The notes below the pieces were generated by a model, which did no database searches, was not told the origin of the DNA, and saw only the letters and a list, made by a program, of their open reading frames with translations. DNA of 64,000 bases from Chamaesiphon sp. (GTDB taxonomy: Bacteria; Cyanobacteriota; Cyanobacteriia; Cyanobacteriales; Chamaesiphonaceae): contig CBDFFH010000020.1 in NCBI GenBank assembly GCA_965246715.1, positions 64,001 to 128,000 on the forward strand, written 5' to 3'. The first letter of the stretch is position 1, and every line of letters begins with the position of its first letter. The position numbers and the translations under genes were made by a program. Positions 1 to 62,147 of the stretch are shown here, piece after piece.

Positions 1-359
1 GCACCAGAATCGACTACCATCAGCACTTCTCGCTGCTTTAACCGATACTGAGCTGGAGCGGCCTCGCCAACAGTAAATGAAACTGGATACAGAGGTTCCC
101 AAGTTTCTTTCTTCAATCCGTAAAATTTTACCCAGTAAAAGCTGACTTGAGCAGTAGTAGCAGGAATCCAATCGATGATAAATGGCTTACCAGTGGCGAT
201 CGCCTCCGCTTCAACCAGATCGTAACTGTCACCTGCCGCCAAGACTTCACCAGTCCCACAAGCTATATACTTTTTCCGATAGTTGCTGCGGATCGTCCGG
301 CGATTCTGGGTGCGCCAGAGAATAATGGCTTGAGTCTGTTCTGGAGTGCGACTTTGCAT
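1..359 (-). CDS. retropepsin-like aspartyl protease family protein (runs off the window edge)
   Basis: Not in ORF track; hand-translated open frame MQSRTPEQ...EVLMVVDSG(A) ending in a D-S-G aspartyl protease-like motif; carries a 24-nt in-frame insert at 47-70. Confidence 0.65.
   Translation of the reverse strand, partial: MQSRTPEQTQAIILWRTQNRRTIRSNYRKKYIACGTGEVLAAGDSYDLVEAEAIATGKPFIIDWIPATTAQVSFYWVKFYGLKKETWEPLYPVSFTVGEAAPAQYRLKQREVLMVVDSG
47..70 (-). repeat. two-hairpin micro-element, family A (diverged)
   Basis: TG^TTGGCGAGGCCGCTCCAGCTCAGT^ATCG. Confidence 0.7.
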
Positions 360-521
360 AGTTATCGGCGGTGGATCTTCATGCTGTAATTATATCACCA
401 ACCAAACTGAAACATCAATTTTATCCGAGTTTTATCCGACGTATGGAAATGAATCTTTTCATGCGTTAAAGCGGTGGTATAATCTTACCAATCTCCTAGT
501 ACCGAGCAATTGAGGTTAGAT

Positions 522-1092
522 ATGATTGCAGCACCAGCACATTTGCCCCGACTTACCCCTGAAGAGTACTTTGCTTGGGAACAGCAGCAAGAAATTAAGC
601 ACGAGTACTTCGATGGCGAAGTTTTTGCCATGAGTGGTGGGACGGTCAATCACGGACGGATTGGCGGTAGAATTTTTTCATTAATTGACGATCGTCTCAG
701 CGAATCGGATCGCTGCATCGCGCTTAACTCAGATGTCAAAATTAAGATCCAAGCATCAGAAAAGTACGTTTACCCCGATGCCAGTGCGACCTGTGATGAA
801 CGAGATCGACAAACGACTCAATTTATTAGCCATCCATCTCTAATCGTCGAAGTCCTTATCCCCCAGTACTGAAGCCTATGACCGAGGCAAGAAATTCAAA
901 CTCTATCAGCGATCGCCCAGCTTAGTTGAATACGTCCTCGTTAGTGCTGAAGAAATTGAAATTGAAGTATTCCGCAAGAACGAGCGTAGTAAGTGGGAAG
1001 TAACCAACTACGTTGCTGGGGATACGGTCGAACTAGAAAGTATCGGACTCTCCTTTGCCATCGAACGAGTCTATCGTGGCATCGAATTTTGA
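522..1092 (+). pseudogene. Uma2 family endonuclease, +1 frameshift near 855
   Basis: KHEYFDGEVFAMSGG, YVYPD, LIVEVL, then continues in another frame as SPSTEAYDRGKKF...IERVYRGIEF*. Confidence 0.85.
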
Positions 1093-1138
1093 GGCAGATC
1101 TTCACTCGTCACCTTTGTGAAAGTTATATAAAAGAAAA

Positions 1139-1543
1139 ATGATGATTGAATATATTCCTTTATGCAAACATTGCCAATCTTCGGCTCTAGAAATTCAAGG
1201 AGCTAAAAACGAGGAGAATGCGAGTTGGCTAGATTATGAATGTCATAGCTGCGGTGAATTTACTAGATTTCACTATGCCAAAGACGCAGTAGCAGGAGCA
1301 GACCCAATCCGCATCGAATCTGGCCCTATAAAAAATAGATCTAAACTTCGATCGTTTGAGTTCGAGCTAACCGACGAGCAAGCCCAAGCCCTAGCTCAAT
1401 ATCTCAAGCGCGTCCAGTTTGATGATTTCCGCCGCCGCGCTATCGATGAAGACGACGCTTATCTCATGCAAGATGCAGCCTCAGAGGTTCGCAAAGCATT
1501 GGCACGTTGGGCTAGTTTAGCGAAACAGGCAACTACATCGTGA
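1139..1543 (+). CDS. hypothetical protein with N-terminal CxxC...CxxC zinc ribbon
   Basis: 134-aa ORF with CKHC and CHSC; helical C-terminus LTDEQAQALAQYLKR. Confidence 0.6.
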   Translation: MMIEYIPLCKHCQSSALEIQGAKNEENASWLDYECHSCGEFTRFHYAKDAVAGADPIRIESGPIKNRSKLRSFEFELTDEQAQALAQYLKRVQFDDFRRRAIDEDDAYLMQDAASEVRKALARWASLAKQATTS

Positions 1544-1790
1544 AATGGGAATTATATGATAAATAGAAACGCAGAATTAGGAATGAGAAATAAAATTTGC
1601 AAGCACATATACATTTTTAAATATTCCTAACACTAACAATACTTTCTTTTACTCAAAGTCGCTGCTTATCAGATGGTTAAGCCATTTGATAAGTTGATGA
1701 CGGAACTCGATCGATGTCTTGAGACTATTAATACAATACGATAACGATTGAGAGTACCGCATTCATAGCTAAATAACTAATTAAAATAAG

Positions 1791-2096
1791 GTGGATAATA
1801 ATCTCATTAGACCGAAACTAATAACAGAATACCGACAGGATAGTGAAATAGATGAAGATTTTATCGGTTATTATGCTGTCGGGCATTGGGATAGGCAGTC
1901 GTTCGCTATTGCTTGTCACAAGAATTATGGAACTGATGATATTGTCATTTTATCTGAAGTGATATTAGGCTGGGCGAGTCGGTGTCATTGTGAAGACGAT
2001 GAGCCTGATGATGAATACAATTGCTGGAATTATCATGAATTAAAAACTCAAGAGAGTGTAAGACCAGTTACTTATTGGCTGAGGTCTAAAAGATGA
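1791..2096 (+). CDS. hypothetical acidic protein
   Basis: 101-aa ORF, GTG start after TAAG. Confidence 0.5.
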   Translation: MDNNLIRPKLITEYRQDSEIDEDFIGYYAVGHWDRQSFAIACHKNYGTDDIVILSEVILGWASRCHCEDDEPDDEYNCWNYHELKTQESVRPVTYWLRSKR

Positions 2097-2103
2097 GCTT
2101 TGT

Positions 2104-2163
2104 TTAGAGAGTATCAACTTAACTTTCCCAATCGAGCGAGTGTATCGAGGAATTGAATTTTAA
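2104..2163 (+). pseudogene. 3' remnant of a second Uma2 gene
   Basis: Reads LESINLTFPIERVYRGIEF*, versus LESIGLSFAIERVYRGIEF* at the end of the Uma2 gene (1092). Confidence 0.75.
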
Positions 2164-2190
2164 TTATCGAAAATTTGGAATCTACAAAAT

Positions 2191-2715
2191 ATGATTACTA
2201 CAAAGTTGCACGAACGGTATAATAGTCATCAAATAACACTTAACGAGGTTTATCCGAGAGAATATGAGCTGTGGATCGATGAAAAAGTATATCAAAATCC
2301 CAATCGAACCATATCTCGCGATGAACGCAAGCTGTGGCAGCTTGGAAGAGAGATCGTAGACAGTTTATTGCCGGACGAAAAGCATAAGATTATCCAGAAA
2401 ATATTGGAAAAGTCTCCATACCTTAAAAGTTTTTACTTCAGAGATCTTTCTGAGTCGGAACTGAATCAATTATGTGAACATCTCCAATCTAATAATCGAT
2501 CCCCCAAAGCCCAAGAGGAGCATCTTTTCAAGACAGGGGAGGCTACGCCAACGAACTCGATCTCTATTGGCTCTATTGTCATTGGAGAGAAATCTCCTAC
2601 TAACAGAGGTATTGTATTTTCTTTTGCTCAGGAAGAACCTTTAGTCTTGTGGCAGAGTGGGTTCAAGAGCATTTGTAGGATCGAACAACTCAAGTTAGCT
2701 CCTGTTGAATTATGA
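2191..2715 (+). CDS. hypothetical protein, coupled to the recombinase
   Basis: 174-aa ORF with ATGA overlap to the next gene. Confidence 0.65.
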   Translation: MITTKLHERYNSHQITLNEVYPREYELWIDEKVYQNPNRTISRDERKLWQLGREIVDSLLPDEKHKIIQKILEKSPYLKSFYFRDLSESELNQLCEHLQSNNRSPKAQEEHLFKTGEATPTNSISIGSIVIGEKSPTNRGIVFSFAQEEPLVLWQSGFKSICRIEQLKLAPVEL

Positions 2716-3716
2716 CTCGCAACCCTCCTGCTGTCGTCATCACTCCAGTCGTCGAAGTGCAAGCGATTTCTATTCCCAGTGCTGCTTCACAACATTTGTG
2801 GGCGGAGTTTGGACAGTTGAAAATCACCGACAGTACTCGCAAACAGTACGTTAAGGCGATCGAGAATTTCTGTCAGTTTGCTTATAACGGCTCTGCTACT
2901 CCAGAGAGGATCGCAGAATTTCTAGATTTCGATCGATATGCTGCAATTGAGCTGGTATTAAGGTATCGTCGTCACTCGATCGATAAAAACCTTGCACCTA
3001 GCACGATTAATGTCCGGCTGGCGGCGATTAAGAGTTTGGTGGACATGGCGCGGAAGCTGGGTAAAACCACTGTCGATCTGGGGGATATCGAGAGCATCCC
3101 CAGTGAGAGCTATCGCGATACTAAGGGGATTTCGGTCGAACAGTTTAAGTCGATGTTGGAGGAGATCGATCCGAGTACGCCGATCGGGGTGAGGGATTAT
3201 GCGATCATGTTGTTATTCTGGGGGAATGCACTCCGACGGGGGGAAATTGCCAGTGCGAATATTGAGGATTTTTTACCCCAGCAGCAGAAGTTGACGATCT
3301 TAGGGAAGGGGAAACGAGCGAAGGTGGCGATCGATCTGACGGATAGTGTGAGTTATGCTTTGGAGGAGTGGCTGAATTTTCATCCTTACAATTCGCCGGA
3401 AAAGCCACTGATTACTTCTTTGAGCCATAACTGTTATGGGTCGAGGATTGCTGGGGATAGTATTTATCGGATCGTTCAGGGGTATGCTGAGGCTGCGGGG
3501 ATCGAGCGGCGGGTGTCGCCGCACCGTCTAAGGCATAGTTCGATTACAGCGTTTTTGGATGCTAGTGGGGGTAATCTGCGGGCGGCACAAGCGTTGAGTC
3601 GGCATCGCAATCAGAATACGTTGAATTTGTACGATGATAATCGACGACAGGAACAGAAGGGTGCTTCTGGGATGTTGGAGGATTTGTTAGTGGGGACTGG
3701 CGGGAAAAGCGAGTGA
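2712..3716 (+). CDS. XerD-like tyrosine recombinase/integrase
   Basis: RDYA...LRRGEI, GKG, SPHRLRHS, SRH...NLY catalytic residues; N-terminal SAM-like domain. Confidence 0.93.
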   Translation: MTRNPPAVVITPVVEVQAISIPSAASQHLWAEFGQLKITDSTRKQYVKAIENFCQFAYNGSATPERIAEFLDFDRYAAIELVLRYRRHSIDKNLAPSTINVRLAAIKSLVDMARKLGKTTVDLGDIESIPSESYRDTKGISVEQFKSMLEEIDPSTPIGVRDYAIMLLFWGNALRRGEIASANIEDFLPQQQKLTILGKGKRAKVAIDLTDSVSYALEEWLNFHPYNSPEKPLITSLSHNCYGSRIAGDSIYRIVQGYAEAAGIERRVSPHRLRHSSITAFLDASGGNLRAAQALSRHRNQNTLNLYDDNRRQEQKGASGMLEDLLVGTGGKSE

Positions 3717-3932
3717 CTAATAATTTATTTGCTGGGATTTATTAGTGGATGTGCTGAATTTTTTAAATAGCTAAGATCGACTAAAAACCCTGCTCTCATT
3801 GCGATTCAGGCTGAGATAAAACTATATTTTTATCCTGACCTTTCTCAACGATTACACCCGCATGAAGGGTGGCTTAAAACCTTTACCTACTCTTACTCGA
3901 TCGAAACTTTCCATTCGTAATTCTAAAGTATT

Positions 3933-4427: not shown

Positions 4428-4555
4428 AACGGTAGCTTTATTTCGGATCTCGCTTGCGAGTCCGCTATGAGTCAAAAAATAGAGCCACCCGATCGTCAGA
4501 AACGATTCACAGCCAAATTCTATCCTCTCGATCTCAACCATAACTCCAACATCAA

Positions 4556-5386: not shown

Positions 5387-5410
5387 TACTACTGTCACTG
5401 AATCGGGAGA

Positions 5411-10499: not shown

Positions 10500-11000
10500 C
10501 TTCTACACGGCGATTTCGCCTCATCGTCGGCGACTTTACCCGCACTCATCGTCGAGCGATCTAGCTCAAAATCTTTTTTCAAAGGGTGAGACAAAATTCT
10601 TATCCCCCAGGGGGCGAACTCCTGACAGCATGTTTCGTTGGCGAAGCCTCAGTAATCGAATGCCGCTGGCTGCATTGCCAGACACGACAAACCCGACTGC
10701 AAATTAATTCGATCGTGGCTGGCATTTCAAACCAAAATCTTTTTTCAAAGGGCTCGGAGCTAGCACAGGTGCCAAAAAATAGCTGGCATCCCCCAGTGAG
10801 GCATTACACCACGAACTCCGCCTCGATATCGCTGCCGTGCCGTAGACCACCGTTTCCACGTTTAGAGCCTGGAGATCGGTTGGGCGGCAGGATCTCGAAT
10901 CAAGGCCAACACGGGCAAATTTTGGGTCGCCAAAATGCGGGCAATTTGATGGCCAACACCACGGCTAGCACCAGCCAGAAAAATCGAATGCCGATAACAC
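10500..11000 (-). pseudogene. decayed NAD(P)H-binding (atypical SDR) gene
   Basis: SIFLAGASRGVGHQIARILA Rossmann motif followed by frameshifts and stops. Confidence 0.65.
10638..10654 (+). repeat. micro-element family A (short, 17 nt)
   Basis: CG^TTGGCGAAGCCTCAGTA^ATCG. Confidence 0.7.
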
Positions 11001-14115: not shown

Positions 14116-15055
14116 GTGAAGATGAATCATTCTCGAAATCGCCGGAAATTTTTGCTGGCTGCTATATCTGTGCCGATGGCGACTATTTGGACATCGTGGG
14201 CTACGAAGGGGGATGCTGTAGTTTCGGCTCAAGCACAGTTAGCGAAACTCGAACGGACTTTGGCAGGTCGTCTGGGTGTATTTGCAATGGACACAGCCAA
14301 TGGCAAACAACTTAGCTATCATGCTGATGAGTATTTTCCCATGTGCAGCACTTTCAAGGTACTCCTGGTATCCGCCATCTTGAAACGCAGCACACAGAGC
14401 GATAGGTTGATGCAGCAGCGCATCAAATACCAGCAGAGGGATCTGGTGACATATTCCCCCATTACCGAACGGCATGTGGAAGATGGCATGACGGTTTCCG
14501 CTCTCTGCGCCGCTGCAATCCAGTATAGCGACAACACCGCTTCAAATCTGTTGATGAAGCTCCTCGGTGGCCCTGGATCTGTCACTACGTTCGCGCGATC
14601 GCTCGGCGATCTCCAATTTCGGCTCGTTGGCGTAGCCTCTCGCGAGCGAGAATCGCTGGGAAACTGCGCTTAATTCATCGCTTCCAGGCGATCGACGGGA
14701 CACATCGACACCTAATGCGATGGCAAGTAGTCTCCAACGACTCGCATTTGGAGACGCACTAGAGCCACATCTCCAGTTGCAATTACGAGTTTGGCTACAT
14801 GGTAATACGACTGGGGCGGCACGCATTCGCGCTGGTGTTCCTACCGACTGGGAAGTCGGAGACAAGACGGGTACTGGCGACTATGGTACCGCCAACGATC
14901 TTGCCGTGTTGTGGCCGCCACGGAGATCGCCCGTTGTCATGGCGATCTACACCACTCAAGGTGAGAAAGACGCAAAGGCGCGTAATGACGTTATTGTATC
15001 GGCAGCTCGAATTGTTGTCGATTGGCTGGCGATTGCTAAGATCGAAGGATTCTAA
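14116..15055 (+). pseudogene. bla: class A beta-lactamase, Tat-type signal, frameshifted by a 25-nt insert
   Basis: RRKFLL, STFK, SDN, KTG; removing 14627-14651 restores FRLDRWETALN and joins the two ORFs. Confidence 0.93.
14627..14651 (+). repeat. micro-element family A (25 nt)
   Basis: CG^TTGGCGTAGCCTCTCGCGAGCGAGA^ATCG. Confidence 0.92.
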
Positions 15056-16205: not shown

Positions 16206-17081
16206 ATGAAAGCACAGCAGTCACGTACTCGAATCTGGCGATCGCATTATCTACCCTCGATCGAGTTATTGCATAGTGCTGGTCAAAGCTCCCATTCATT
16301 GCCCCGCCATTTTCACGAAGAACTAGAGCTAAACATCAAGCAGGGTGACGGCTGGCAGTTTAATTACCGAGGTACGACGCACAACGTGCCAGCAGATACA
16401 TTAGCGATCACACAACCGGGCGAAGCGCATCAGGCGGACTCGACTGGTAACTCTTCAGGCAAGAGCCTCCGCCAACAAGACTACATTTTTAGAGGACTGA
16501 GGATCGATCTGGATTTACTGCAACAAGTGGCGACTGACGTTGCTGGACGCGAGACATCTGTGCCATTTTTTCCGCTGCCGCTCGTCCAAGATCGCGACCT
16601 CACCGACCAGATCGTGCGAGTTCACCAAGCACTATCACAACCCATTTCTCAGCTCGAACAACAGTCATTGGTGCTAGATTTCTTAGCACAATTAATTCTG
16701 CGATGTGCGGCAGCACCAATTTGTATTGCCAAGTTAGGGGCAGAACGTCAGCCAGTCGAGCGCGTTCGGGCGTATATCGAAGAAAATTACGATCGGGAGA
16801 TTTCATTAGAGGAATTATCACGAGTTGCCAATTTAAGTTCCTTTCATCTGAATCGATCGTTTAGTAAAACATTTGGAATGCCGCCGCACGCTTATCAAAT
16901 TCAAGTACGAATTTTACAGGCAAAACGTTTGCTTGGTAAAGACTGGTCGATCGATCGAGTCGTTTCCGAAACTGGCTTTGCGAGTCAAAGCCACTTTGGT
17001 TTACATTTTAAGCGGCTGGTTTGTATCACCCCCAAACAATATATTCAAGACAGCAAGAACGTGATAGATTTCGGTAATTAA
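16206..17081 (+). CDS. AraC family regulator (cupin + double HTH)
   Basis: PRHFHEE; SLEELSRVANLSSFHL; GFASQSHF. Confidence 0.93.
   Translation: MKAQQSRTRIWRSHYLPSIELLHSAGQSSHSLPRHFHEELELNIKQGDGWQFNYRGTTHNVPADTLAITQPGEAHQADSTGNSSGKSLRQQDYIFRGLRIDLDLLQQVATDVAGRETSVPFFPLPLVQDRDLTDQIVRVHQALSQPISQLEQQSLVLDFLAQLILRCAAAPICIAKLGAERQPVERVRAYIEENYDREISLEELSRVANLSSFHLNRSFSKTFGMPPHAYQIQVRILQAKRLLGKDWSIDRVVSETGFASQSHFGLHFKRLVCITPKQYIQDSKNVIDFGN
16452..16475 (-). repeat. micro-element family A (diverged)
   Basis: TTGGCGGAGGCTCTTGCCTGAAGA; accounts for 8 extra aa relative to two AraC paralogs. Confidence 0.7.
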
Positions 17082-17219
17082 GTTCATTAAGCTGGAGACA
17101 AGTGGAAGAGCGCGATTAATGTGCTTTGAAAAATTTAATTTCTGGCGATTCTTGTCAATAATCAAATCGATCGCCGGAGTGCCAGCGGCTGAGTAATTAA
17201 TTATAGAAGGCAATCATTT

Positions 17220-17960
17220 ATGGCACCTTTAACCGGGAAAGTGGCGATCGTGACTGGCTCGTCGCGCGGCATCGGGCGCGGCATTGCGGAACAGTTGGGA
17301 CGCGATGGAGCAGCGGTGGTCATCAACTATTCTGGCAGCGAACGGGAAGCCAGTGAAGCTGTAGAGGCGATTGCCGCAGCGGGTGGCAAGAGCGTGGCAA
17401 TTCAGGCAAGTATGAGTCAGGTTGCGGATATTCGCCGTCTGTTCGCCGAGACGATGCAGCACTTTGGTCGCATCGATATTCTGGTTAATAATGCTGGCAT
17501 GAGTTTTATGAGCGCGATCGCGGATGTGACTGAAGATGAGTACGATCGGGTGTTTGACCTGAATGTTCGCGGCGTTTTGTTTGCGTTGCAAGAAGCCGCC
17601 AAACACATGAATGACGGTGGCAGGATCGTCAATATTTCCTCTTCAACCACCCTTTATCCTGAATCGGGGATGGCACTTTATACAGCGAGTAAGTCAGCCA
17701 TCAAGCTGTTTACCGTCGTGATGGCAAAGGAAGTCGGATCTCGCGGCATTACCGTCAATACCGTCACGCCTGGTCCGACAATTCCTGGAATGTTTGGCAA
17801 TTTGCCGCCAGAAGTGCAGCAGCTCGCTGCTGCCAGTTCTCCCTTCAATCGCGTCGGAACGCCCCAAGACATCGCAGACGTGGTGTCATTTCTGGTGAGC
17901 GATCGAGGGCGATGGTTAACCGGACAAGATATTTGTGCCAATGGCGGCGCAAACATGTAA
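17220..17960 (+). CDS. SDR family oxidoreductase
   Basis: TGSSRGIG, NNAG, YTASK. Confidence 0.95.
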   Translation: MAPLTGKVAIVTGSSRGIGRGIAEQLGRDGAAVVINYSGSEREASEAVEAIAAAGGKSVAIQASMSQVADIRRLFAETMQHFGRIDILVNNAGMSFMSAIADVTEDEYDRVFDLNVRGVLFALQEAAKHMNDGGRIVNISSSTTLYPESGMALYTASKSAIKLFTVVMAKEVGSRGITVNTVTPGPTIPGMFGNLPPEVQQLAAASSPFNRVGTPQDIADVVSFLVSDRGRWLTGQDICANGGANM

Positions 17961-18161
17961 CTGAGGTTTCGATCGCCCGAACCTGGAACTAGGCTGGAAA
18001 TTTCGAGTTCTAAATTCGACCTTTCAGGCTTGGTAAGCCGAGGGGCAAAAGCTCAAATTGTCGAGTAAAACCTGCCCTACTCCCAGCCAGCGACAGCATC
18101 CTAGATGTCACAGCAGTAGCTTTAGCACTGATGAGCGACGACGCGAATAGAAGCATCACCT

Positions 18162-19010
18162 ATGAAAGCAAATCAGTCACACATTAAGGTTTGGCGATCG
18201 CAGTACCTGCCATCGATCGAATTGGTGCAGAGTGTTTCTAAAGCATATTCATTGCCCCGCCATTTTCATGAAGAACTAGAGCTTGTCGTTAGACAGGGTG
18301 ACGGGTGGCAATTTAACTATCGAGGCGCGATGTATAGCGTTCCCTCAGATACCTTAGTTGTGACACAACCTGGAGAAGTCCACCATGCTAATTGGATGAG
18401 CGAGCGAGACTGTACGTTTCGAGGGCTACGAATCGATCCAGATTTACTGCAACAAGTTGCCACAGAAATTGCTGGGCATCAAACAGCGGTGCCATTTTTT
18501 CCGATGCCGCTAGTCCAAGATCGCGACCTCACTCACCGGATCGTGCGAGTTCATCAAGCCTTATCGCAATCGGGTTCGCAACTCGAACAGCAAACTACGA
18601 TCCAGGATCTGGTAGCACGATTGATTCTGCGCTGTGCTGCCAATCCACCCTGTCTGACTAGAGTAAGAACAGAACGTCAGCCCATCGAGCGCGTGCGGGC
18701 ATATCTACAAGACCATTACAGTCGAGAGATCTCGCTAGAGCAACTAGCACAGATTGCCGAGTTGAGTTCGTTTCATCTCAATCGCTCGTTTCGCCAAATA
18801 TTTGGAATGCCACCGCACGCTTATCAAATTCAAGTGCGAATTTTACAGGCAAAACGGCTACTCAGACAAGAGCTATCGATCGAGCAAGTAGCCATTGCCA
18901 CTGGATTTGCGAGTCAAAGCCACTTTGGAACGCACTTCAAGCGGCTCGTTTTCGTTACACCGATGCAATACGTTCGAGACAGCAAGAACGTGATAATTTT
19001 CAGTGTTTAG
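18162..19010 (+). CDS. AraC family regulator (paralog of 16206-17081)
   Basis: Same motifs, clearly alignable. Confidence 0.93.
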   Translation: MKANQSHIKVWRSQYLPSIELVQSVSKAYSLPRHFHEELELVVRQGDGWQFNYRGAMYSVPSDTLVVTQPGEVHHANWMSERDCTFRGLRIDPDLLQQVATEIAGHQTAVPFFPMPLVQDRDLTHRIVRVHQALSQSGSQLEQQTTIQDLVARLILRCAANPPCLTRVRTERQPIERVRAYLQDHYSREISLEQLAQIAELSSFHLNRSFRQIFGMPPHAYQIQVRILQAKRLLRQELSIEQVAIATGFASQSHFGTHFKRLVFVTPMQYVRDSKNVIIFSV

Positions 19011-19083
19011 ATTTGTTAGGGTAGAGACACGTTCGTTCTTAACCAGAAAGCGATCGCATCCCAGATCGGTAAAATTAAAATAC

Positions 19084-19458
19084 ATGCTGGAACACACCGC
19101 TGAAATTACCAGCTTTCATGCCCATATTTATTACGACCTCACGACCCGCGAGGTGGCAGAGCGCGTGCGGCAGGGATTAGGCGATCGCTTTGAGGTACAG
19201 TTGGGACGCTGGCACGATCGACCGATCGGCCCTCATCCAAAGTCGATGTACCAGGCTGCTTTTGCCGTAAATCAGTTCGATCGGGTCGTGCCGTGGCTAA
19301 TGCTGCACCGCGAAAACTTAGATATTCTCATTCATCCTAATACGGGAGATGCAGTTGCAGACCATACCGATTATGCTCTGTGGTTGGGAGAGAAACTGCC
19401 AGTCAAAATTGAACCCCTGCGGCAATTTAACAAGTCACTTCTGCTGGCACAAACTTGA
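19084..19458 (+). CDS. DOPA 4,5-dioxygenase family protein
   Basis: FHAHIYY, PIGPHP, ILIHPNTG, DHT...WLG. Confidence 0.88.
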   Translation: MLEHTAEITSFHAHIYYDLTTREVAERVRQGLGDRFEVQLGRWHDRPIGPHPKSMYQAAFAVNQFDRVVPWLMLHRENLDILIHPNTGDAVADHTDYALWLGEKLPVKIEPLRQFNKSLLLAQT

Positions 19459-19475
19459 ATCCCTTAAATCTACCT

Positions 19476-20367
19476 ATGAAAGCAAATCTACCGATGAAAG
19501 AGGATCTATTACGCCCTAAACTTTGGCGATCGCGCTACCTGCCATCAATCGAGTTCTTTGAGAATACTTGTAAGAGCTTCTCATTGCCCCGCCATTTTCA
19601 TGACGAACTAGAGCTTAACCTCCGGCAGGGTAACGGCTGGCAGTTAAACTACCGAGGCACGATCCACAGCGTGCCATCTGAAACCTTAGTTGTGACACAG
19701 CCAGGAGAATCGCATCAAGTCGATGCGCCTAGCGATCGGCAAGGCACTTTTCGCGGATTACGGGTAGGGATAGATTTACTTCAACAAGTGGCTACAGAAG
19801 TTGCCGGACGCGAAACAGAGCTGCCACTTTTTCCGATGCCATTAGTCCACGACAGCAATTTTAATATCCAGTTCATTCGAGTTCATCAAGCTGTAGAACG
19901 GTCTACATCTCAACTCGAACAACAGACATTGACCCTAGATTTGTTAGCACAATTAATTCTTCGCCATTCAGAAAATCCACCGGATCTCGCCAATTTAGAA
20001 ACGGAAATTCAGCCTGTCCATAACATTCGTGACTACCTAGAAGAACATTCCGATCGAGAAATATCGTTAGAGCAATTGGCACAGGTGGCGAACTTGAGTC
20101 CATTTCATCTCAATCGCTCGTTTCGCCAAACATTTGGAATGCCGCCGCACGCTTATCAAATTCAAATGCGAATTTTGAGAGCAAAACGTCTCCTCAGAAA
20201 AAATAGATCGATTACCTCCGGTAGGCTCCGCCAACGAGAGTGTCGCTATTGAAACTGGATTTGTGAGTCAAAGCCACTTTGGATCGCACTTCAAGCGGCT
20301 GGTTGCTCTTACTCCAAAGCAATTCATCCAAGACAGCAAGAAAACGATAAATTTCGATTTTAAATAA
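19476..20367 (+). pseudogene. third AraC paralog, frameshifted by a 22-nt insert
   Basis: Removing 20213-20234 restores RSIESVAIETGFVSQSHFG...QDSKKTINFDFK*. Confidence 0.9.
20213..20234 (-). repeat. micro-element family A (22 nt)
   Basis: CG^TTGGCGGAGCCTACCGGAGGTA^ATCG. Confidence 0.92.
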
Positions 20368-20482
20368 AAGTTAAACAAGTTATGTTCAAGGTTTCTCGAA
20401 AGGCAAATGCTCGACCCTGTTGTCGTTCGATAACCTGACCCCGTTCATCAACCCGTACAGTTTCAAACTCAACGGGATATCG

Positions 20483-20506
20483 TTGGCGTAGCCTACCGCG
20501 TAGGTA
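20483..20506 (+). repeat. micro-element family A
   Basis: CG^TTGGCGTAGCCTACCGCGTAGGTA^ATCG. Confidence 0.9.
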
Positions 20507-20624
20507 ATCGTTAACTTTAATAGCAGACATCAGATTGCAACTCCTTAAGTTTATTAGTTGTTTGCGTTACTAATTTGCTGATATGTTTTGTCAATTGTTA
20601 CGCTCGATTGTGCGGTACCAATCA

Positions 20625-20999
20625 TCAATCATTTTGAATATTCCAATCCACACTTCGATTCCACGCATCAGATATTGTCACTGATGTCCCATGCCATTTA
20701 ATAAATACATTTCTTCGATCTGTAATTTTTGTTGGGTCATCTAATTCACTAGCAGAGAATGCTTTGGTAAAAACTATCGTCTCGTTAGTGTTAGCCAGTC
20801 GAAAAGTTACTCGATCGAGCTTATTAAATAATCCGAATATGCCGACTCTCTGCACTGTAACCGATGCGACATGCTTGCCGTCGTCCGATTTTTTTGTTTC
20901 GCCATATGACAACGGTATCCAGCAAGGAAAAGAAATCAATAATGCGGTAAATAATAAAGCCGCGATGTATTCTCTTGATATTTTCATCCAATTTGTCAC
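20625..20999 (-). CDS. hypothetical membrane-anchored or secreted protein
   Basis: 124-aa ORF with N-terminal hydrophobic segment; AT-rich. Confidence 0.55.
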   Translation of the reverse strand: MTNWMKISREYIAALLFTALLISFPCWIPLSYGETKKSDDGKHVASVTVQRVGIFGLFNKLDRVTFRLANTNETIVFTKAFSASELDDPTKITDRRNVFIKWHGTSVTISDAWNRSVDWNIQND

Positions 21000-21047
21000 T
21001 TTCGCATGTATTTATTTGTTAACATAATATCTGGTGTTATGAGTAGG

Positions 21048-21145
21048 CAATATATCCAAGACAGCAAGAACGTGATAATTTTCGGTGTTTAGGTTCGTTA
21101 GGGTATATACATGTTCGCTCTCAACCAAGGTAGCCAGCGATGAAT
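21048..21145 (+). promoter_or_regulatory. free-standing copy of the AraC-3'-end promoter module
   Basis: CAATATATCCAAGACAGCAAGAACGTGATAATTTTCGG..., matching 17037+ and 18975+. Confidence 0.7.
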
Positions 21146-21628
21146 ATAACTTCAACGACAAAATCCAGGCGGATAACAGGTAAACTGTTAATCTCTTTGG
21201 TGGCAGTATTTACCGCTGTAGCTCCATATCTAGCAGATTGGAATGTAACGCACATTTATAATCCGGCGTGGCCCCCACACGCTAAATTTCACAACGCACA
21301 AACTATGGTTTTGGGCACGATTCTCGGTTTTCTAACCATGTATTGTTTGTGGCTTAGAAAAGGGGTTACGCAACAGCAAAAGTTAAACGAAGCGGCGGTT
21401 TTGGCATCATTATATTGGTTGGCTCAATTACCTGCGACATTCTTTCCTGGAGTAGCGTTGGCTGACCCTGGAAAGAATCATACCCAAATGCCAGTCATAT
21501 TTGGTGTCGAACTTAACCAGCTAATCATGGATATTATCGTTATTTTTCCTTTGATTGCCGTTGGCTATTATTTGGAAAGTAAATCGCTTAAAAAGGCAGA
21601 AATTGCCAAAAACTTAAACATCACTTAA
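21140..21628 (+). CDS. membrane protein (DUF6640-like)
   Basis: ADWNVTHIYNPAWPPHAKFHNAQT plus transmembrane helices. Confidence 0.8.
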   Translation: MNITSTTKSRRITGKLLISLVAVFTAVAPYLADWNVTHIYNPAWPPHAKFHNAQTMVLGTILGFLTMYCLWLRKGVTQQQKLNEAAVLASLYWLAQLPATFFPGVALADPGKNHTQMPVIFGVELNQLIMDIIVIFPLIAVGYYLESKSLKKAEIAKNLNIT

Positions 21629-21644
21629 ACATCAAAAAAACACT

Positions 21645-22559
21645 ATGAAACCAACAATTTTAGTAGCAGGCGGAACGGGTAATCTTGGCGAACGAATTAT
21701 TAAAGCCTTAATAAAAAGAGGGGCAGACGTTCGCGCGATCGTCCGTAACGGTAGCAAACCAGAAAAAATTGCCAAACTGACCGAACTCGGAGCGAAAGTA
21801 ATTACTGTCGATATGTCAGATGTCGAGCAGCTCAAACAAGCCTGTCAAGGTACATCGTGTGTGGTTTCGGCTTTAGCCGGATTGCATGAGACAATTGTTG
21901 ACTCGCAAATCAAATTGCTGGATGCAGCGATCGCCGCAGGTGTGCCACGCTTTATTCCTTCGGATTATTCTGCCGACTTTACCAAACTACCCGCAGGCGA
22001 CAACCGAAATTTCGATCTCCGCAAAGAGTTTCATCAATATCTGGACAAATCTTCGTTGGCGCAGCCTCCCGGAACGGGAATCGCTGCCACTTCGATTATG
22101 AACGGAGCTTTTGCCGATATCTTGAGCTATGGTACGCCAGTTTATAACGTGGAAAATTACAGCGTCGGTTATTGGGGTGATAAATCCGACTGGAAAATCG
22201 ACTTTACGACGATGGACGATACGGCAGATTATACCGCCGCCGCTGCGATCGATGCCTCAACACCAAGAATTTTACGGATTGCTAGTTTCCAAATTAGCCC
22301 AAATGAATTAGTGGCTGTTGGCACAGAAGTTAAAAAGACAGAATTCAAACTTATTCCAATGGGCAGTATGGAAGATTTTTCCGCCTCAAATAAACAAGAG
22401 CGATCGGCGAATCCAGCAGGAGAAAAAGAATTGTATCCAAGTTGGCAAGCCAAGCAATATTTACATAGTATGTTCAGCGTCCAAAACATACCACTAGATA
22501 ACGATCGTTATCCTGATGTCCAGTGGACGAGTGCATATGATGTGATTGCAAAAATTTAA
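21645..22559 (+). CDS. NmrA family NAD(P)-binding protein with 8-aa insert
   Basis: VAGGTGNLG, RFIPSDY; LAQPPGTG encoded by 22056-22079. Confidence 0.9.
   Translation: MKPTILVAGGTGNLGERIIKALIKRGADVRAIVRNGSKPEKIAKLTELGAKVITVDMSDVEQLKQACQGTSCVVSALAGLHETIVDSQIKLLDAAIAAGVPRFIPSDYSADFTKLPAGDNRNFDLRKEFHQYLDKSSLAQPPGTGIAATSIMNGAFADILSYGTPVYNVENYSVGYWGDKSDWKIDFTTMDDTADYTAAAAIDASTPRILRIASFQISPNELVAVGTEVKKTEFKLIPMGSMEDFSASNKQERSANPAGEKELYPSWQAKQYLHSMFSVQNIPLDNDRYPDVQWTSAYDVIAKI
22056..22079 (+). repeat. micro-element family A
   Basis: CG^TTGGCGCAGCCTCCCGGAACGGGA^ATCG. Confidence 0.92.
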
Positions 22560-39433: not shown

Positions 39434-39647
39434 TTGCCGATCGAGAATGCGTAATCGGCGATTCGATTTCCTGTCGATCGCGCAGCGTCGGCTTTGCTGA
39501 ATCGATTACCATTCCAGCTTAGGGAAACGACAACTTTTCCACTATCTGATTCTTGTGAAACTAACAAAATCTTGCGGGCAATTCTCAGCATGTTTGAGGA
39601 AATGCGAAAATGAAGATAATCAGATCTAGACGAATGGGGTTTACATT

Positions 39648-43866: not shown

Positions 43867-44520
43867 ATGACATCCGATCGTCACGTTACACTGTTTCATT
43901 CACCAAACACGCGCTCTTCTGGGGCACTGACCCTGCTTAAAGAACTCAATGCTGATTTTGAATTGCACGTCCTCAATCTGAAGGCAAACGAACAGCGTGG
44001 AGCTGAATATCTAGCCATTAATCCAATGGGTAAAGTACCAGCGATAAAACATGGTGATGAATTGATTACTGAGCAGGTAGCTATCTTTTTATACCTTGCG
44101 GATCTGTATCCTGAAGCCAATTTAGCACCCGCGATCGGCGAACCGCTGCGGGGTACATATTTGCGCTGGATGGTCTATTATGGTTCCTGTTTCGAGCCAG
44201 CAATCGTCGATCGAGCGCAAAAAAATGCGCCAGCACCGCCTGCGATGTCGCCTTACAGTGACTACGATACGATGTTGAGTGCGTTGACCGTTGGCGAAGC
44301 CTCTCGGAACGAGAATCGATTATCCCAAGGAGATTACTTTCTGGGCGACAAATTTACTTCCCTAGATGTACTTTGGGGACATGCATTGAATTGGGTGACA
44401 ATGTTTAAGCTGGTACCAATGCTGCCTGTAATTAAAGCCTATATCGATCGGATTAATACTCGCCCATCCGTGGTGTGGACGAGAGCAAAAGATGCTGAAA
44501 TAGCTGCCAGTCAGAGCTAA
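43867..44520 (+). CDS. glutathione S-transferase with 8-aa insert
   Basis: INPMGKVP..ITEQVAI; VGEASRNEN arises from 44291-44314. Confidence 0.92.
   Translation: MTSDRHVTLFHSPNTRSSGALTLLKELNADFELHVLNLKANEQRGAEYLAINPMGKVPAIKHGDELITEQVAIFLYLADLYPEANLAPAIGEPLRGTYLRWMVYYGSCFEPAIVDRAQKNAPAPPAMSPYSDYDTMLSALTVGEASRNENRLSQGDYFLGDKFTSLDVLWGHALNWVTMFKLVPMLPVIKAYIDRINTRPSVVWTRAKDAEIAASQS
44291..44314 (+). repeat. micro-element family A
   Basis: CG^TTGGCGAAGCCTCTCGGAACGAGA^ATCG. Confidence 0.92.
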
Positions 44521-46739: not shown

Positions 46740-46763
46740 TCTCATTCTGAGAGGCTCCGCCAA
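46740..46763 (-). repeat. micro-element family A
   Basis: CG^TTGGCGGAGCCTCTCAGAATGAGA^ATCG. Confidence 0.92.
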
Positions 46764-47701: not shown

Positions 47702-47705
47702 GTCA

Positions 47706-57500: not shown

Positions 57501-58124
57501 GGGTAGTGCGATATCCTCTCCGAGTGCCCGCAATAACAAGGGCAGTACGCTCTCTAACCACTCTTCAAACGGTGGGGCGTTTTGGAGCGATCTCCATACC
57601 ACTACCTCAAACTCCGATCCAATTTCCCGTATCAGTTTCGCGGCTAATGTGCTTTTGCCCATCCCACCAATTCCCAGAAGTAGGACTAGACGACACTGTT
57701 CCTCTATTACCCATCGCTTGAGCTGCATGATGTCTTCATGCCGTCCACAGAAGATCGAAGTATCGATAATAGCGTTTCCACAATCTGTCTGGGGTTGATG
57801 CGATCGATTTTCATGCTGGGAGGCTTCGCCAACGATTATCTCCTCATCATTATTTGGTCGAGTATAATCGCTTTTGCTTAACTCCAATCCAAAGGCGCGG
57901 AATGCCCACTGTAATGATTGCTTATCTACAGGTTCCGATCGTCCTAACAGTTTGGCGATCGTATTGAGGGATAATCCCATCCGTTCGCTGAGTTCTTCGA
58001 GCGTAAATCGATCTCCGGCATTCTCAGCCAACTCCGCCCGTACTTTTGCCGTTTGAAATTTGTCCCAACCCTGCGCTGTCAGAATGACTCCTCTGTAGCG
58101 TTTAGCTTTTTGTAGTTGCATCAA
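54507..58124 (-). CDS. HTH + NB-ARC/STAND NTPase + WD40 repeat protein
   Basis: [28 protein letters not shown], pentapeptide linker, about 14 WD repeats. Confidence 0.95.
57809..57832 (-). repeat. micro-element family A
   Basis: CG^TTGGCGAAGCCTCCCAGCATGAAA^ATCG. Confidence 0.88.
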
Positions 58125-58395
58125 GTCACCCAGAACGAGGACATTGCCTATCTAAAGTATAGATGCTCGACCCTCAAAACAAAGCTTAACTTGAGCTTAT
58201 CTTCACACCTATCTTGGGAAACTTGACTGGTTTAAATTAGGCAAATGCTCAAAACTAAGCATAGTTCGCATTAAATCATTAATCGATCGCCTGATTCGGA
58301 TCGACTTAGTAGAAATAACGATCGATCGAAGCTTGTCACAAGAAACAATGGTGTTTCGTCTTATTTTATAGAATGCTTGAGAGGGTTCTTTGAAT

Positions 58396-59004
58396 ATGAA
58401 TGAAAAGAAAGCGTTAACAGACCACCCGATTCATGAATTTCTAGCAGAACGCTGGAGTCCTTATGCCTTTAAGGATCGATCTGTTTCTCAGTCCGATCTG
58501 TGCTCGTTATTCGAGGCGGCGCGGTGGTCAGCATCATCCTACAACGAGCAACCTTGGAGTTATATCGTCGCCACCAAGGAAAATCCCGACCAGTTTCAAC
58601 AACTGCTATCTTGCTTAGTCGAAGGAAATCAATTTTGGGCAAAAGATGCTCCAGTGCTAGCTCTGGGCATTGCCAGCCACAAATTTGCGCGGAATGGCGA
58701 AGATAATCGATCGGCTATTCACGACCTCGGACTTGCCACTGGCAATTTAGTCTTAGAAGCGACCGCACGAGAGCTTTGCGTCCATCAAATGATTGGCATC
58801 TTACCTGAGAAAGCCCGCGAAATCTTCGATATACCTACAGATTCTGAGGCATGGACGGGGATCGCGATTGGTTATCGAGGCGATCCGATGACACTGCCAG
58901 ATGCCCTCAAAGAGCGCGATTTAGCACCAAGACAACGGAAGCCGCTAGCACAATTTGTATTTACTGGGAAATGGGGTAAGGCATCAACATTGGTGTTGAA
59001 GTAA
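58396..59004 (+). CDS. nitroreductase family protein
   Basis: ERWSPYAF, ASSYNEQPW, RQRKPL. Confidence 0.92.
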   Translation: MNEKKALTDHPIHEFLAERWSPYAFKDRSVSQSDLCSLFEAARWSASSYNEQPWSYIVATKENPDQFQQLLSCLVEGNQFWAKDAPVLALGIASHKFARNGEDNRSAIHDLGLATGNLVLEATARELCVHQMIGILPEKAREIFDIPTDSEAWTGIAIGYRGDPMTLPDALKERDLAPRQRKPLAQFVFTGKWGKASTLVLK

Positions 59005-59188
59005 TTATCTCTAAACAGACTAATTCAACAGGAGGGAAATAATCAAATTAACTCTCTAGAAATTGTCAATCGAGCTTATATTTACCTAAATAAAAAAGAT
59101 ATCCCTAATTACTTTTCATTTTGGAAGTTTAGATCGACACAAATGTGATGAATGCGGCACTAACCCCAACTTAATCGGAGGTTTGCAG

Positions 59189-60124
59189 ATGAAGATTTTT
59201 GTAGCAGGCGCGACGGGCGCGATCGGTCGTCCGCTCATTGTCGAATTATTGAAGCACGGATATCAAGTATCTGCGCTCACCCGTTCGCTAGCAAAGGCAC
59301 GAAGTTTAACCGAATTAGGCGTGGAACCAGCGATCGCTGATGTCTTCGATCCAGCAGCAGTCGGAACTGCAATCGCCCACATTCAGCCAGAGGTAGTCAT
59401 CGAACAACTCACCGCTCTGCCCAAAACCTATACTGGCGAGTCGATGAGTGCAGCCGCAGCCTTGAATGCACGCATCCGGCTCGAAGGTGGGGGTAATGTA
59501 TTGGCAGCAGCACAAGCGCATGGCGTGCGGCGTTATTTGAGACAGTCTATTGCCTTCTGGGGAAGTCCTGGCGCAGGGTTGGCAGATGAAGCAACACCTT
59601 TAGCCATAGCAGCTTCGCCCGCAGTTGCAGCAGATGCTCGCACGGTGACTGAAATCGAGCACCGACTGCTCAAAATTCCCCATCTCGAAGGGATCGTCCT
59701 CCGCTATGGCTTCTTGTACGGTTCTGGTACTTGGTTTTCTCCCGATGGCGATGTTGCCGCCCAAGTGCGACAGCAACAGTTCCCGATCGTGGGGAATGGG
59801 GCAGGCGTGTGGTCGTGGGTTCACATTGAGGATGCGGCGATCGCTACGGTTGCAGCAGTAGAACGAGGTAATCCAGGCATTTACCTCATCGCGGACGATC
59901 GCCCCTTGGCAGTACGCGAATGGCTGCCAGCTTTTGCCCGATCGATTCAGGCACCCCCACCGCCCCAAGTATCGGTTGAGGCTGTGCTGCAAATCGGTGG
60001 TGCGGATGCTGTTTATTACGGTACTCAGATGCGCGGGGTATCGAATGCCAAGGCAAAACGCGAACTTAATTTTCAGCCGAGATCGTTGGCATGGTTAGAA
60101 ACTGCCGCTGTCTGTAACATTTAA
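59189..60124 (+). CDS. NAD-dependent epimerase/dehydratase family protein
   Basis: VAGATGAIG, LRYGFLYG, SNAKAKRELNF. Confidence 0.9.
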   Translation: MKIFVAGATGAIGRPLIVELLKHGYQVSALTRSLAKARSLTELGVEPAIADVFDPAAVGTAIAHIQPEVVIEQLTALPKTYTGESMSAAAALNARIRLEGGGNVLAAAQAHGVRRYLRQSIAFWGSPGAGLADEATPLAIAASPAVAADARTVTEIEHRLLKIPHLEGIVLRYGFLYGSGTWFSPDGDVAAQVRQQQFPIVGNGAGVWSWVHIEDAAIATVAAVERGNPGIYLIADDRPLAVREWLPAFARSIQAPPPPQVSVEAVLQIGGADAVYYGTQMRGVSNAKAKRELNFQPRSLAWLETAAVCNI

Positions 60125-60224
60125 CCGATCGATATTTCAACCTGATTCAATCGCAGCCGTGAGGCAGCGGCGAAGCACGTCTCATTTCTCGACAGTTGAG
60201 GTTTATCGCTCAGGACGAACAAAG

Positions 60225-60632
60225 ATGAAGATTGCTATCTACGGAACCACGATCGTCGTCATCCACGCGATCGTCAACGGACTACATGGTCTATCACATG
60301 CGGAAATTCCCGTTCCTCTCTCTCTGCTTCAGAGTCTATTTGTCGGGATTGCGATCTTTCCGCTGCCGATCGTCGCCGCCATTTTACTGTGGACACCGTT
60401 TTACCGGATTGGTAGCTGGCTCTTACTAGTTGCAATGGCTAGCTCGCTCCTGTTCGGATTCTACAATCATTACCTGGTCGTTAGCCCAGACCATGTATCG
60501 CAAGTTTCCTTTGCAGGTTGGGGTCTACTATTCCAAGTCACCGCTTTGCTCGTATTTCTTGTGGATGGATTAGGCTGCTGGATTGGGATCTGGGCATTGA
60601 AAACAATTCAGCAACCGGAGGGTGTCGGATGA
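60225..60632 (+). CDS. His-containing membrane protein
   Basis: Four transmembrane segments, HGLSH, NHY, SPDH; ATGA overlap with the sigma factor gene. Confidence 0.75.
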   Translation: MKIAIYGTTIVVIHAIVNGLHGLSHAEIPVPLSLLQSLFVGIAIFPLPIVAAILLWTPFYRIGSWLLLVAMASSLLFGFYNHYLVVSPDHVSQVSFAGWGLLFQVTALLVFLVDGLGCWIGIWALKTIQQPEGVG

Positions 60633-61507
60633 ATTCTCTCGAAGATTTTAACCACCATCGTCCACTCCTGTTCTCGATCGCCTACCGAATGCTCGGCACT
60701 GTCACCGATGCTGAGGATATGGTGCAGGAAACATTTCTCCGCTGGCAACAGACGACAAGCGAAACGGTACGTTCGGCAAAGACTTATCTGACCAGCATTA
60801 TCACACACCTCTGTATCGACCACATGCGATCGGCGCGCGTGCGACGCGAACAATATGTCGGCACCTGGCTACCAGAACCGATGCTAACGCAGGAATCCGG
60901 TAATCCAGCCGATCTCATCGAATTAGCCGACTCGCTCTCGATCGCCTTTCTGATGGTACTAGAGCAGTTATCGCCGATCGAACGCGCGGTATTTCTACTC
61001 CGCGATGTATTCGATTATGACTATGACGAAATTAGTCCGATGGTTGGTAAAAGCCCCACCAACTGTCGCCAAATTCTCAAACGGGCAAAACAGCACCTCA
61101 CCGCACAACGTCCGCGTTTTCCAGTCTCACAGCAGCAGCAAGCACAGATTACAACCCAATTTTTAGATGCTTCCACCAATGGCGATTTACCAGATTTGCT
61201 ACTGTTGCTCGCCAAAGATGTAACGTTTTTGTCGGATGGCGGGGGTGAGGTTGTTGCAACTATTAAACCAATTCATGGAGCAGCAAAAATAGCACGGATG
61301 TTGTTAGCAATTCGTCGTAAATGGCTGTTTAATTCTGTGTCTCATTTAGCTGAAATTAATGGACAGGCTGGCATTGTTCGATACCTAAATGGCAATATCT
61401 ACAGCGCGACCACACTAGAAATCGTCGATGGTTATATTCACTCCATTTACTGTGTGCGAAATCCTCAAAAGCTAGAGCGGATTTACCAAGAACTATCTTT
61501 AAAGTAG
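60629..61507 (+). CDS. ECF41 (SigJ-like) sigma factor with SnoaL-like C-terminus
   Basis: AYRMLG..DAED, YVGTWLPEP, SDGGG, VRNPQKL. Confidence 0.92.
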   Translation: MNSLEDFNHHRPLLFSIAYRMLGTVTDAEDMVQETFLRWQQTTSETVRSAKTYLTSIITHLCIDHMRSARVRREQYVGTWLPEPMLTQESGNPADLIELADSLSIAFLMVLEQLSPIERAVFLLRDVFDYDYDEISPMVGKSPTNCRQILKRAKQHLTAQRPRFPVSQQQQAQITTQFLDASTNGDLPDLLLLLAKDVTFLSDGGGEVVATIKPIHGAAKIARMLLAIRRKWLFNSVSHLAEINGQAGIVRYLNGNIYSATTLEIVDGYIHSIYCVRNPQKLERIYQELSLK

Positions 61508-61689
61508 CGATCGTAATCCGTCTCAAATCGAGCCAATCGTCAGATTTTTCATCGATTTCATGCTTAGTCAAAACGAGCGATTCTATTCTCATTCTATCAC
61601 CGTTGGTGATAGCCTGCCGTTAAGCACAGCATCTACCTTAGCAGAGAAGCTACACCAACAAAATTTTATTAAACAATGAGGTTTTAATT

Positions 61690-62067
61690 ATGAAATTACG
61701 TCTAGTTTGGATTTTCATCAGCGTGATATTTATGTGTTTTCTATTTTCACCACCAGCCTTTTCCGCAGCTACCCAATGTGGAATCCATAAAGGAGATGGC
61801 TGGCGATGTGCCAAAGACAATTATCAAGCTGACACGATCCGAATCGGCAATGAGTCAACTCAGTCTGTCTCTTTTAAAGTCGGCATCTGGACTAGCACTT
61901 GTGGCAAAAAAGGATCTGAAATATCTAATAATAGTTTTTCTGTCGGATCGAGATCTTTTACCACAGTTCCATTGATTGCAGCTAAAGCTAATCAGTGCGT
62001 GGAAATGTTTGTTTATGATTGCTCGACAGATGCCTGTTCAAAAGTTCTTTCCGCCCATACACTTTAG
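61690..62067 (+). CDS. small secreted Cys-rich protein
   Basis: Signal peptide ending PAFSA; six Cys in the mature part; GAGG RBS. Confidence 0.75.
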   Translation: MKLRLVWIFISVIFMCFLFSPPAFSAATQCGIHKGDGWRCAKDNYQADTIRIGNESTQSVSFKVGIWTSTCGKKGSEISNNSFSVGSRSFTTVPLIAAKANQCVEMFVYDCSTDACSKVLSAHTL

Positions 62068-62123
62068 CAAAAATGCCAACCTCGATCGAGCCTATTTCAG
62101 CGATCGCTAGACCATGACTCGAT

Positions 62124-62147
62124 TCTCATTCTGAGAGGCTTCGCCAA
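62124..62147 (-). repeat. micro-element family A
   Basis: CG^TTGGCGAAGCCTCTCAGAATGAGA^ATCG. Confidence 0.92.

Follow-up and report, generated by a model that had tools for sequence, protein, structure and literature searches.

The stretch of DNA analysed here (the window) comprises 64,000 nucleotides (nt) from the genome of a Chamaesiphon sp. (assembly GCA_965246715.1, contig CBDFFH010000020.1, positions 64,001 to 128,000 of the forward strand), and it carries, in both orientations, copies of a very small dispersed element that consists of two adjacent hairpins and typically lies between the CG and the ATCG of CGATCG, the six-base core of the HIP1 repeat. A first-pass annotation, made from the sequence alone, had listed 11 copies, and all 11 coordinates were found on direct inspection to carry the double-hairpin sequence. 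Nine of these copies are located exactly at CG^ATCG: a 17-nt copy with a truncated hairpin 2 (10638..10654, plus strand), a 25-nt copy that frameshifts a class A beta-lactamase-family gene (14627..14651, plus; Pfam Beta-lactamase2), a 22-nt copy of the commonest subtype that frameshifts an AraC-family gene (20213..20234, minus), and six copies of 24 nt. The latter are intergenic (20483..20506, plus; 62124..62147, minus, with the same hairpin 2 as the 46740 copy), lie in frame in an NmrA-family gene (22056..22079, plus), a glutathione S-transferase gene (44291..44314, plus) and a WD40-repeat gene (57809..57832, minus), or add an in-frame stop to a zinc alcohol-dehydrogenase-family gene (46740..46763, minus). 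Thus, three genes of the window are broken by copies and three carry copies in frame. The two remaining copies are decayed 24-nt forms with a mutated hairpin 1 and altered flanks, one at 47..70 (minus; left flank TG, right flank ATCG intact) and one inside an AraC-family gene (16452..16475, minus). The list was, however, incomplete, as it missed a copy with intact CG flank and hairpin 1, a decayed hairpin 2 and no ATCG (2528..2551, minus), and a variant with a CGC stem and a changed first base (39477..39500, plus). The exact motif TT-GGC-GNA-GCC occurs 10 times in the window versus 0.12 expected, a number reached in none of 100 shuffles, and 9 of the 10 matches are copies listed earlier, all between CG and ATCG.

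Alleles devoid of the inserts were found in orthologues and paralogues, as expected if the copies are real insertions. The site of the 14627 copy is empty in all five congener orthologues that span it (in one with a base change in the site), and that of the 46740 copy in all four congener genomes spanning it. The 44291 site is empty in two homologues and the 22056 site in two paralogues; at the 20213 site, four paralogues are empty and one carries a different 25-nt element at the same bond. Since these empty CGATCG sites are precise, the copies are insertions made without target duplication, as had been proposed. Likewise, removal of the inserts restores the motif RLDRWE in the Beta-lactamase2 gene and SIESVA in the AraC gene. 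Two comparisons with related strains give weak hints of the same kind: contigs of 908 and 883 bases would fit the absence of the 25-nt copy, and a strain about 98% alike, with a net difference of 29 bases, 7 of them from listed indels, would fit the absence of the 22-nt copy at 20213. The decayed 16452 copy is also present in a paralogue on contig C27, where its CG flank is intact. The CGC-stem copy at 39477 is filled in the congener G020 too, and is therefore older. The AraC/NmrA block of the window (16206-22559) has several paralogous blocks on contig C27 (about 126000-158000), which provide filled and empty alleles within one genome.

A genome-wide pattern search found TT-GGC-GNA-GCC 274 times in the 6.1-Mb genome, 226 times after CG. 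About 50 further structured copies have another stem, TT-CGC-GNA-GCG; this second variant is aimed at the same target and has hairpin 2 types in common with the first. With a general pattern, 183 copies were found in CG^ATCG, and 305 in which YG-TT is followed by hairpin 1; insertion at CG^ATCG was seen in 9 window copies and 175 genome copies, with empty homologues. Among 191 genome copies the lengths were 22 (53 copies), 23 (9), 24 (118) and 25 (11), in a tally whose pattern allowed 22-25 nt only, and a tally of this genome without the length constraint contained no 21-nt class. With 10 copies per 64 kb versus 274 per 6.1 Mb, the window is about 3.5 times as dense in copies as the genome on average, but the high density to which the first-pass annotation had drawn attention is not peculiar to this genome, as genomes of another family have 84-201 copies versus 183 here.

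We compared the 191 copies with 1.6 Mb of G020, in which 162 sites had no orthologue, 22 were empty, 4 were filled and 3 were of other kinds. In the opposite direction, 67 of 96 G020 copies had no orthologue in this genome, 22 sites were empty, 4 were of the same length (one of them empty on inspection) and 3 were other. Thus, 22 of 29 comparable sites are empty in each direction, with some of the sites scored as empty carrying diverged bases. The shared filled sites are all of the CGC type, indicating that the GGC type spread more recently. Only 44 of the 191 copies lie inside predicted coding frames, as compared with 835 of 1500 random sites, and 36 of these 44 have a length that keeps the frame versus 82 of 147 elsewhere. 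The orientation of genic copies is not biased (26 sense, 18 antisense). Additionally, copies reside in HIP1-poor accessory regions (median 4.0 versus 5.0 CGATCG per kb).

The latter observation could be taken to mean that the elements are not mobile at present, and that rare originals were spread passively by HIP1-associated recombination in transformation, by gene conversion and by horizontal transfer, their stems being perfected in place by quasi-palindrome correction. The occurrence of copies in accessory regions and in multi-copy hosts would agree with this, as would stems that vary with compensation inside a single site of a miniature inverted-repeat transposable element (MITE)-like repeat, the subtypes that low-copy genomes of other families have in common, and the increase in transformation efficiency by HIP1 described in the accessible part of 10.1101/2024.09.10.611283. 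However, there are around 160 unrelated flanks per genome, mostly lineage-specific, which ordinary homologous recombination cannot reach. Moreover, about 30 copies with an identical hairpin 2 lie at unrelated sites, and two different elements occupy one homologous bond. We consider passive spread highly improbable.

Hairpin 2 is very variable (93 types among 159 copies), and what is conserved in it is structure rather than sequence. In 72 distinct 13-nt types, pairs 2 to 5 are Watson-Crick in 63, 64, 62 and 56 cases, versus means of 40, 30, 44 and 29 after shuffling, and the observed counts were reached in none of 5000 shuffles; pair 1 is nearly invariant and hence uninformative. The compensatory changes noted before are therefore far above shuffled expectation, but they are not perfect in every copy, as stem 2 of the 57809 copy is imperfect. 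In hairpin 1 the loop is GNA in 181 of 218 copies and ANA in 22. The middle base can indeed be any of the four (T/A/G/C = 47/34/21/13 among 115 copies of 24 nt). The two stem variants (GGC in 83 and CGC in 26 of 115) differ in the outer pair only, and GCGNAGC is kept in both. According to the available part of PMC13037366, GNA (with any N) is the only one of the 64 triloops that forms a DNA mini-hairpin of very high stability that resists exonucleases, the RNA equivalents being much weaker, as demonstrated there for the tetraloop. The loops of hairpin 2 lean in the same direction (18 GNA versus 5 TNC among the 72 types). The GNA loops, the GCGNAGC core and the lack of sense/antisense bias argue for folding of DNA rather than RNA, and suggest that the GNA strand folds as single-stranded DNA. 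No match for the element was found in Rfam.

The same features bear on a route through RNA, in which a reverse transcriptase (group II intron-like or other) would write the elements into DNA. Reverse transcriptases gave 22 matches in this genome and are present in 5 of 5 other high-copy genomes checked, and the high variability of the loops would fit error-prone copying. Still, a GNA triloop with a free middle base is a stability motif of DNA in what could be consulted of PMC13037366, the copies show no orientation bias to transcription and mostly lie outside predicted coding frames, and no primer or priming signal is found in 24 bases. An RNA route thus appears very unlikely. Independently, we noted several reverse-transcriptase genes within 20 kb of this genome (G000:C43:22760-42656), one of them in an open frame of 1326 amino acids.

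The genome has a GC content of 45.8% and contains CGATCG 28,365 times, TCGATCGA 4,633 times and the full octamer GCGATCGC 2,803 times. The corresponding rates, about 757 TCGATCGA and 458 GCGATCGC per Mb, agree with those given for Chamaesiphon in Table 2 of PMC4390886, a source available to us in part. Full octamers make up 2803 of 28365 (about 10%) of the CGATCG sites, and 11 of 166 non-redundant inserts are in octamers, versus 9.9% by chance (p 0.19). The six-base target, presented in the first-pass annotation as a special property of the element, is therefore the local form of HIP1: the target has 6 bp because only about 10% of the CGATCG sites of the genome are octamers. The base upstream of the hexamer is T in 102 and A in 5 of the 166 sites (p 5e-10), and the downstream base is near background; pairing of base -3 with base +5 had no effect (35% versus 33% expected). 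Flank preferences differ in other lineages. In Nostocales, 23 copies from 22 loci are flanked by G (23) and C (22), 22 are 21 nt long and 22 of 23 are in octamers, although octamers already account for 16 of the 20 hexamers sampled from a Nostoc plasmid. In the genome G213, C is preferred downstream and the upstream base is free. As a separate observation, a 1230-bp multi-copy element with terminal inverted repeats at the right end of the window (G000:C20:127034-128263) lies between GCGATCG and ATCGC, that is, at a HIP1-like site with an apparent short duplication.

Small dispersed repeats (SDRs) of Nostoc provide the closest relatives of these elements. SDR5 was reportedly described by Elhai et al. 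in 2008 as having two hairpins with compensatory changes, no terminal repeats and no target duplication, and SDR4 and SDR6 are said to have a secondary structure in common and to nest in themselves and in mini-transposons. The elements studied here also have two hairpins with compensatory changes and neither terminal repeats nor target duplications. As far as the accessible parts of the later sources go, SDR5 splits HIP1 after its third base (PMC4390886), which is the CG^ATCG register seen here, it is 21 nt long, limited to a few heterocystous cyanobacteria and of unknown function (PMC13756078), and no such repeat outside Nostocaceae had been reported at the time of PMC5861425. The 21-nt elements from the 22 Nostocales loci match hairpin 1 at 10 of 11 bases and follow the two-hairpin plan, with a different hairpin 2; by length and register they are probably SDR5. 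As they have the same hairpin 1 and register, we file the Chamaesiphon elements, judged against the later descriptions, as an SDR5 variant outside Nostocaceae, which supports the kinship suggested before. The variant departs from SDR5 in its length (22-25 versus 21 nt), its TT start and its longer and far more variable second stem, in a second stem-1 variant that likewise targets HIP1, in its hexamer target (11 of 166 in octamers, versus 22 of 23 Nostoc loci), and in its range.

As to that range, the strict pattern is present in 24 of 24 congeners, at 23-206 copies each; 16 genomes from other families have 0-2. The 22-nt form was also found on a contig named as Chamaesiphon. Among 301 genomes of the phylum searched with the general pattern, six genomes of family f7 have 84-201 copies, which are Nostoc-type sequences, several further genera have 13-41, and 227 genomes have none. 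In a pattern scan of GTDB, about 90 of 114 loci were non-cyanobacterial, apparent chance matches nearly all lacking hairpin 2, and cyanobacterial rows alone were used. No copy was found in 50 kb of a Nostoc punctiforme plasmid. The literature that we searched, most subscription papers being outside the search, contained no report of such elements in Chamaesiphon and none of an enzyme that moves them. In the same literature, which did not include the original SDR paper, we did not find the range across the genus, the second HIP1-targeting variant, the DNA mini-hairpin reading, or a lineage-linked target with replacement of the +1 base, described below.

Most information on the mechanism is carried by the second stem variant, nesting and non-HIP1 hosts, all of which the first-pass annotation had overlooked. 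Besides HIP1, elements occupy their own loops, the arms of further copies, a MITE-like repeat, repetitive extragenic palindromes (REPs) and other hairpins, and the insert invariably follows (C/T)G. Subtype X (hairpin 2 TCTGC-N4-GCAG) is outside ATC in 16 of 16 copies examined, and the main classes are inside ATC in about 219 of 242, the copies in both counts not being independent. Among 150 listed of the 295 matches to subtype X in the genus, at most one is in the ATCG register, and visual inspection showed no full hairpin with ATCG after it; six of the 150 represent a different nesting. Its hosts are at least 10 kinds of hairpin, the same subtype X element occurs in different host hairpins, and several empty alleles show precise insertion at G^A. 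The nesting of subtype X, and that of CGC-type elements in the Nostocaceae-like genome G278, resembles SDR4 and SDR6, except that here the stem-1 type does not set the target. The last base of HIP1-targeting copies is A here, C in Nostoc, and G and T elsewhere, both stem-1 variants are used, and the CGC variant targets HIP1 here but almost never in G278 (90 copies), indicating that the target is not written in the stems of the element. An integron-like crossover at G^TT was dropped as a candidate, since the last base is not conserved and the element is too small.

Several further observations were made on hosts and relatives. Families with the same hairpin 1, other hairpins 2 and other hosts (e.g., after TCCTG) are present in G213, where they reach high copy number, G231 and G332. 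Composites nested at two or three levels, of up to about 70 bases, are found at loci L255, L287, L289, L292 and L321, some of them repeated at several places of G020. The MITE-like repeat, with dozens of copies (e.g., on C12, C15, C22, C29 and C39), has two internal hairpins whose loops show micro-inversions (GAA versus TTC) that assort freely among copies, suggesting frequent template switching or conversion. An array of small toxin-antitoxin genes (Phd/YefM, Fic/Doc and others) in a cassette-like layout (G000:C2:235100-245900; L174:5100-15900) contains about ten REP-like intergenic repeats of 150-250 bp in one orientation, with HIP1 sites variably filled or empty; a cluster of same-strand copies on contig C2 is explained by a repeated host unit.

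Non-HIP1 hosts often show a replacement of the first base downstream of the insert. Three host repeats that are unrelated to each other have A after the cut in 42/42, 4/4 and 107/110 empty alleles, and C or T in 25/26, 7/8 and 4/4 filled ones. This would be consistent with the donor's +1 base being carried over and the next bases guiding the landing. The separation of targets could instead reflect two or more mobilisers acting on one scaffold, such as a HIP1 nicker, possibly linked to methylation, and an actor on hairpin loops, the target being set by the choice of enzyme and not by flank pairing. Subtype X and the HIP1 subtypes hardly overlap in targets, and flank preferences differ by lineage (G-C octamer in Nostoc, T upstream here, C downstream in G213), as this would predict; moreover, the insertion bond is the CGAT^CG bond of the other strand, and part of PMC4390886 suggests that directed cutting of HIP1 could explain SDR5. 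Against several mobilisers, the same hairpin 2 occurs with both hairpin-1 variants, some types occur in both target classes, and no nuclease was found beside a gene whose product is probably the CGATCG methylase. In our opinion, this explanation is unlikely.

Another candidate is a dedicated single-strand HUH transposase of the IS200/IS605 or REP-associated tyrosine transposase (RAYT) type, which would move the element as a closed 22-25-nt dumbbell circle and find the target through the protein or an internal guide. Lack of duplication, hairpin ends and a single-strand signature are typical of such enzymes in the consulted parts of PMC8266576 and PMC6006769, and the element joined end to end would, from its sequence, be a two-hairpin dumbbell. 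Y1 genes are present in 26 of 27 genomes of the genus, and in this genome 3 of the 6 Y1 loci lie no more than about 400 bp from a copy or a decayed one. However, the six Y1 matches are RAYT-like genes, each flanked by its own REP-like family, and 29 other Y1 loci have 6 copies in 84 kb, about the background density. Three Y1 types show no association with copy number (9/16 high-copy versus 18/35 low-copy genomes, 7/16 versus 19/35, and 7/16 versus 8/35). No match to Y1 or IS110 was found in the 90-contig draft of G252, a genome with 143 copies (of 100 listed, about 29 are identical), and IS110 is also absent from G332. Furthermore, replacement of the +1 base would not be expected from a clean circle. 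Phylogenetic profiling for a co-occurring enzyme, as proposed in the first-pass annotation, therefore revealed no RAYT, IS200 or IS110 enzyme that tracks the elements, in agreement with its statement that the mobilising enzyme is unknown. Nor did this draft genome contain an autonomous multi-copy long repeat with the element's ends.

A replication-strand bias typical of single-strand transposition was not reproducible either. Copies are on the G-rich strand in 119 of 189 cases here (block p 0.003-0.04) versus 41 of 99 in G020, and because of this reversal a link of orientation to GC skew was rejected; in this genome the link is not significant at four-fold or non-coding sites, and there is no two-part skew that would define replichores. 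Local hopping of sister copies is weak in this genome, with 21 pairs versus 7 expected within 200 kb (the top type omitted), and absent in G020. An HUH circle seems rather unlikely to us.

The elements nonetheless resemble the products of these systems in part, as far as they are described in the available portions of PMC8266576, PMC6006769 and PMC3116915. In common with REPs they are small hairpin DNA with proposed single-strand processing and in-frame insertion into genes, but they are single rather than doubled, lack a GTAG foot, have junctions G^T and G^A rather than C^T, and have no cognate RAYT gene that they flank or are co-distributed with; REPs serve here as hosts of the element. With IS200/IS605 derivatives they have in common end hairpins, the lack of target duplication and a target possibly recognised by DNA-DNA pairing (PMC8266576, accessible part), but they are much smaller, without a conserved guide base, an autonomous partner or a reproducible lagging-strand bias. 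From MITEs they differ in having no terminal inverted repeats or target-site duplications, and in their precise empty sites. As side observations, the Y1 genes at C9:115803 and C14:4559 of this genome (L181, L182) have the Y---Q-HH motif of subclass 1.2 and are flanked by REPIN-like hairpins related to high-copy repeat families of the genome; subclass 1.2 is listed as lacking REPs in the part of PMC6006769 available to us.

We favour, with a probability of roughly 40%, movement of the element as folded single-stranded DNA, with landing set by pairing of the donor flanks, and with nick-and-join or template switching by a host or trans-acting enzyme. The GNA strand would fold into two compact hairpins, so that no more than two bases would separate the CG flank from the ATCG flank and the donor strand could register on an empty site; the donor's +1 base would be carried over, and the bases from +2 onwards would have to match the target roughly. 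HIP1 specificity would then maintain itself, since about 28,000 matching targets become available to any lineage that has landed in CGATCG. Selection in the host would subsequently purge most copies from needed genes and retain those with in-frame lengths.

A number of results weigh against flank-guided movement of a DNA hairpin. Nearest-neighbour folding with ViennaRNA favoured neither strand, nor DNA over RNA. Sister copies have no common flank bases beyond the hexamer (-3 to -6, +5 to +8), so any carried homology would be limited to CG plus four bases, and inheritance does not explain the preference for T at -3. Filled copies in multi-copy hosts are not independent and may stem from few founders, through conversion or the host's own mobility; the +1 replacement therefore rests on perhaps three or four events. 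Simple flank matching also leaves unexplained why subtype X has switched among many +2/+3 contexts, but not to ATC; the subtype may instead be selected through the target's A completing its stem. Moreover, no enzyme was found among the candidates searched and no intermediate in the assembled contigs, and a dedicated protein that recognises the element would fit equally well with its invariant first T and with the persistence of hairpin 1 from Nostoc to this genus.

The elements are real and mobile, and of a kind described in 2008. Much more doubtfully than their mobility, SDR-type elements might be the smallest known homing DNA, a pair of mini-hairpins of 21-25 bases without a transposase of its own, copying into any site that matches the two upstream and few downstream bases of the donor, with HIP1 parasitised as the commonest matching word, and thereby exposing nicking or strand switching at the CG^ATCG bond. 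The question of how elements of 21-25 bases move dates from 2008, and work on the function of HIP1 is continuing; nicking or strand switching at CG^ATCG, if true, would bear on that function. Flank-guided insertion, if true, would represent a minimal, scarless and programmable single-strand insertion route. Hundreds of alleles, filled as well as empty, are available in this genus, which also has a footprint of base replacement and several subtypes that differ in their targets. Whatever the mechanism, the elements continually supply cyanobacterial genes with frameshifts and with insertions of 8 residues.

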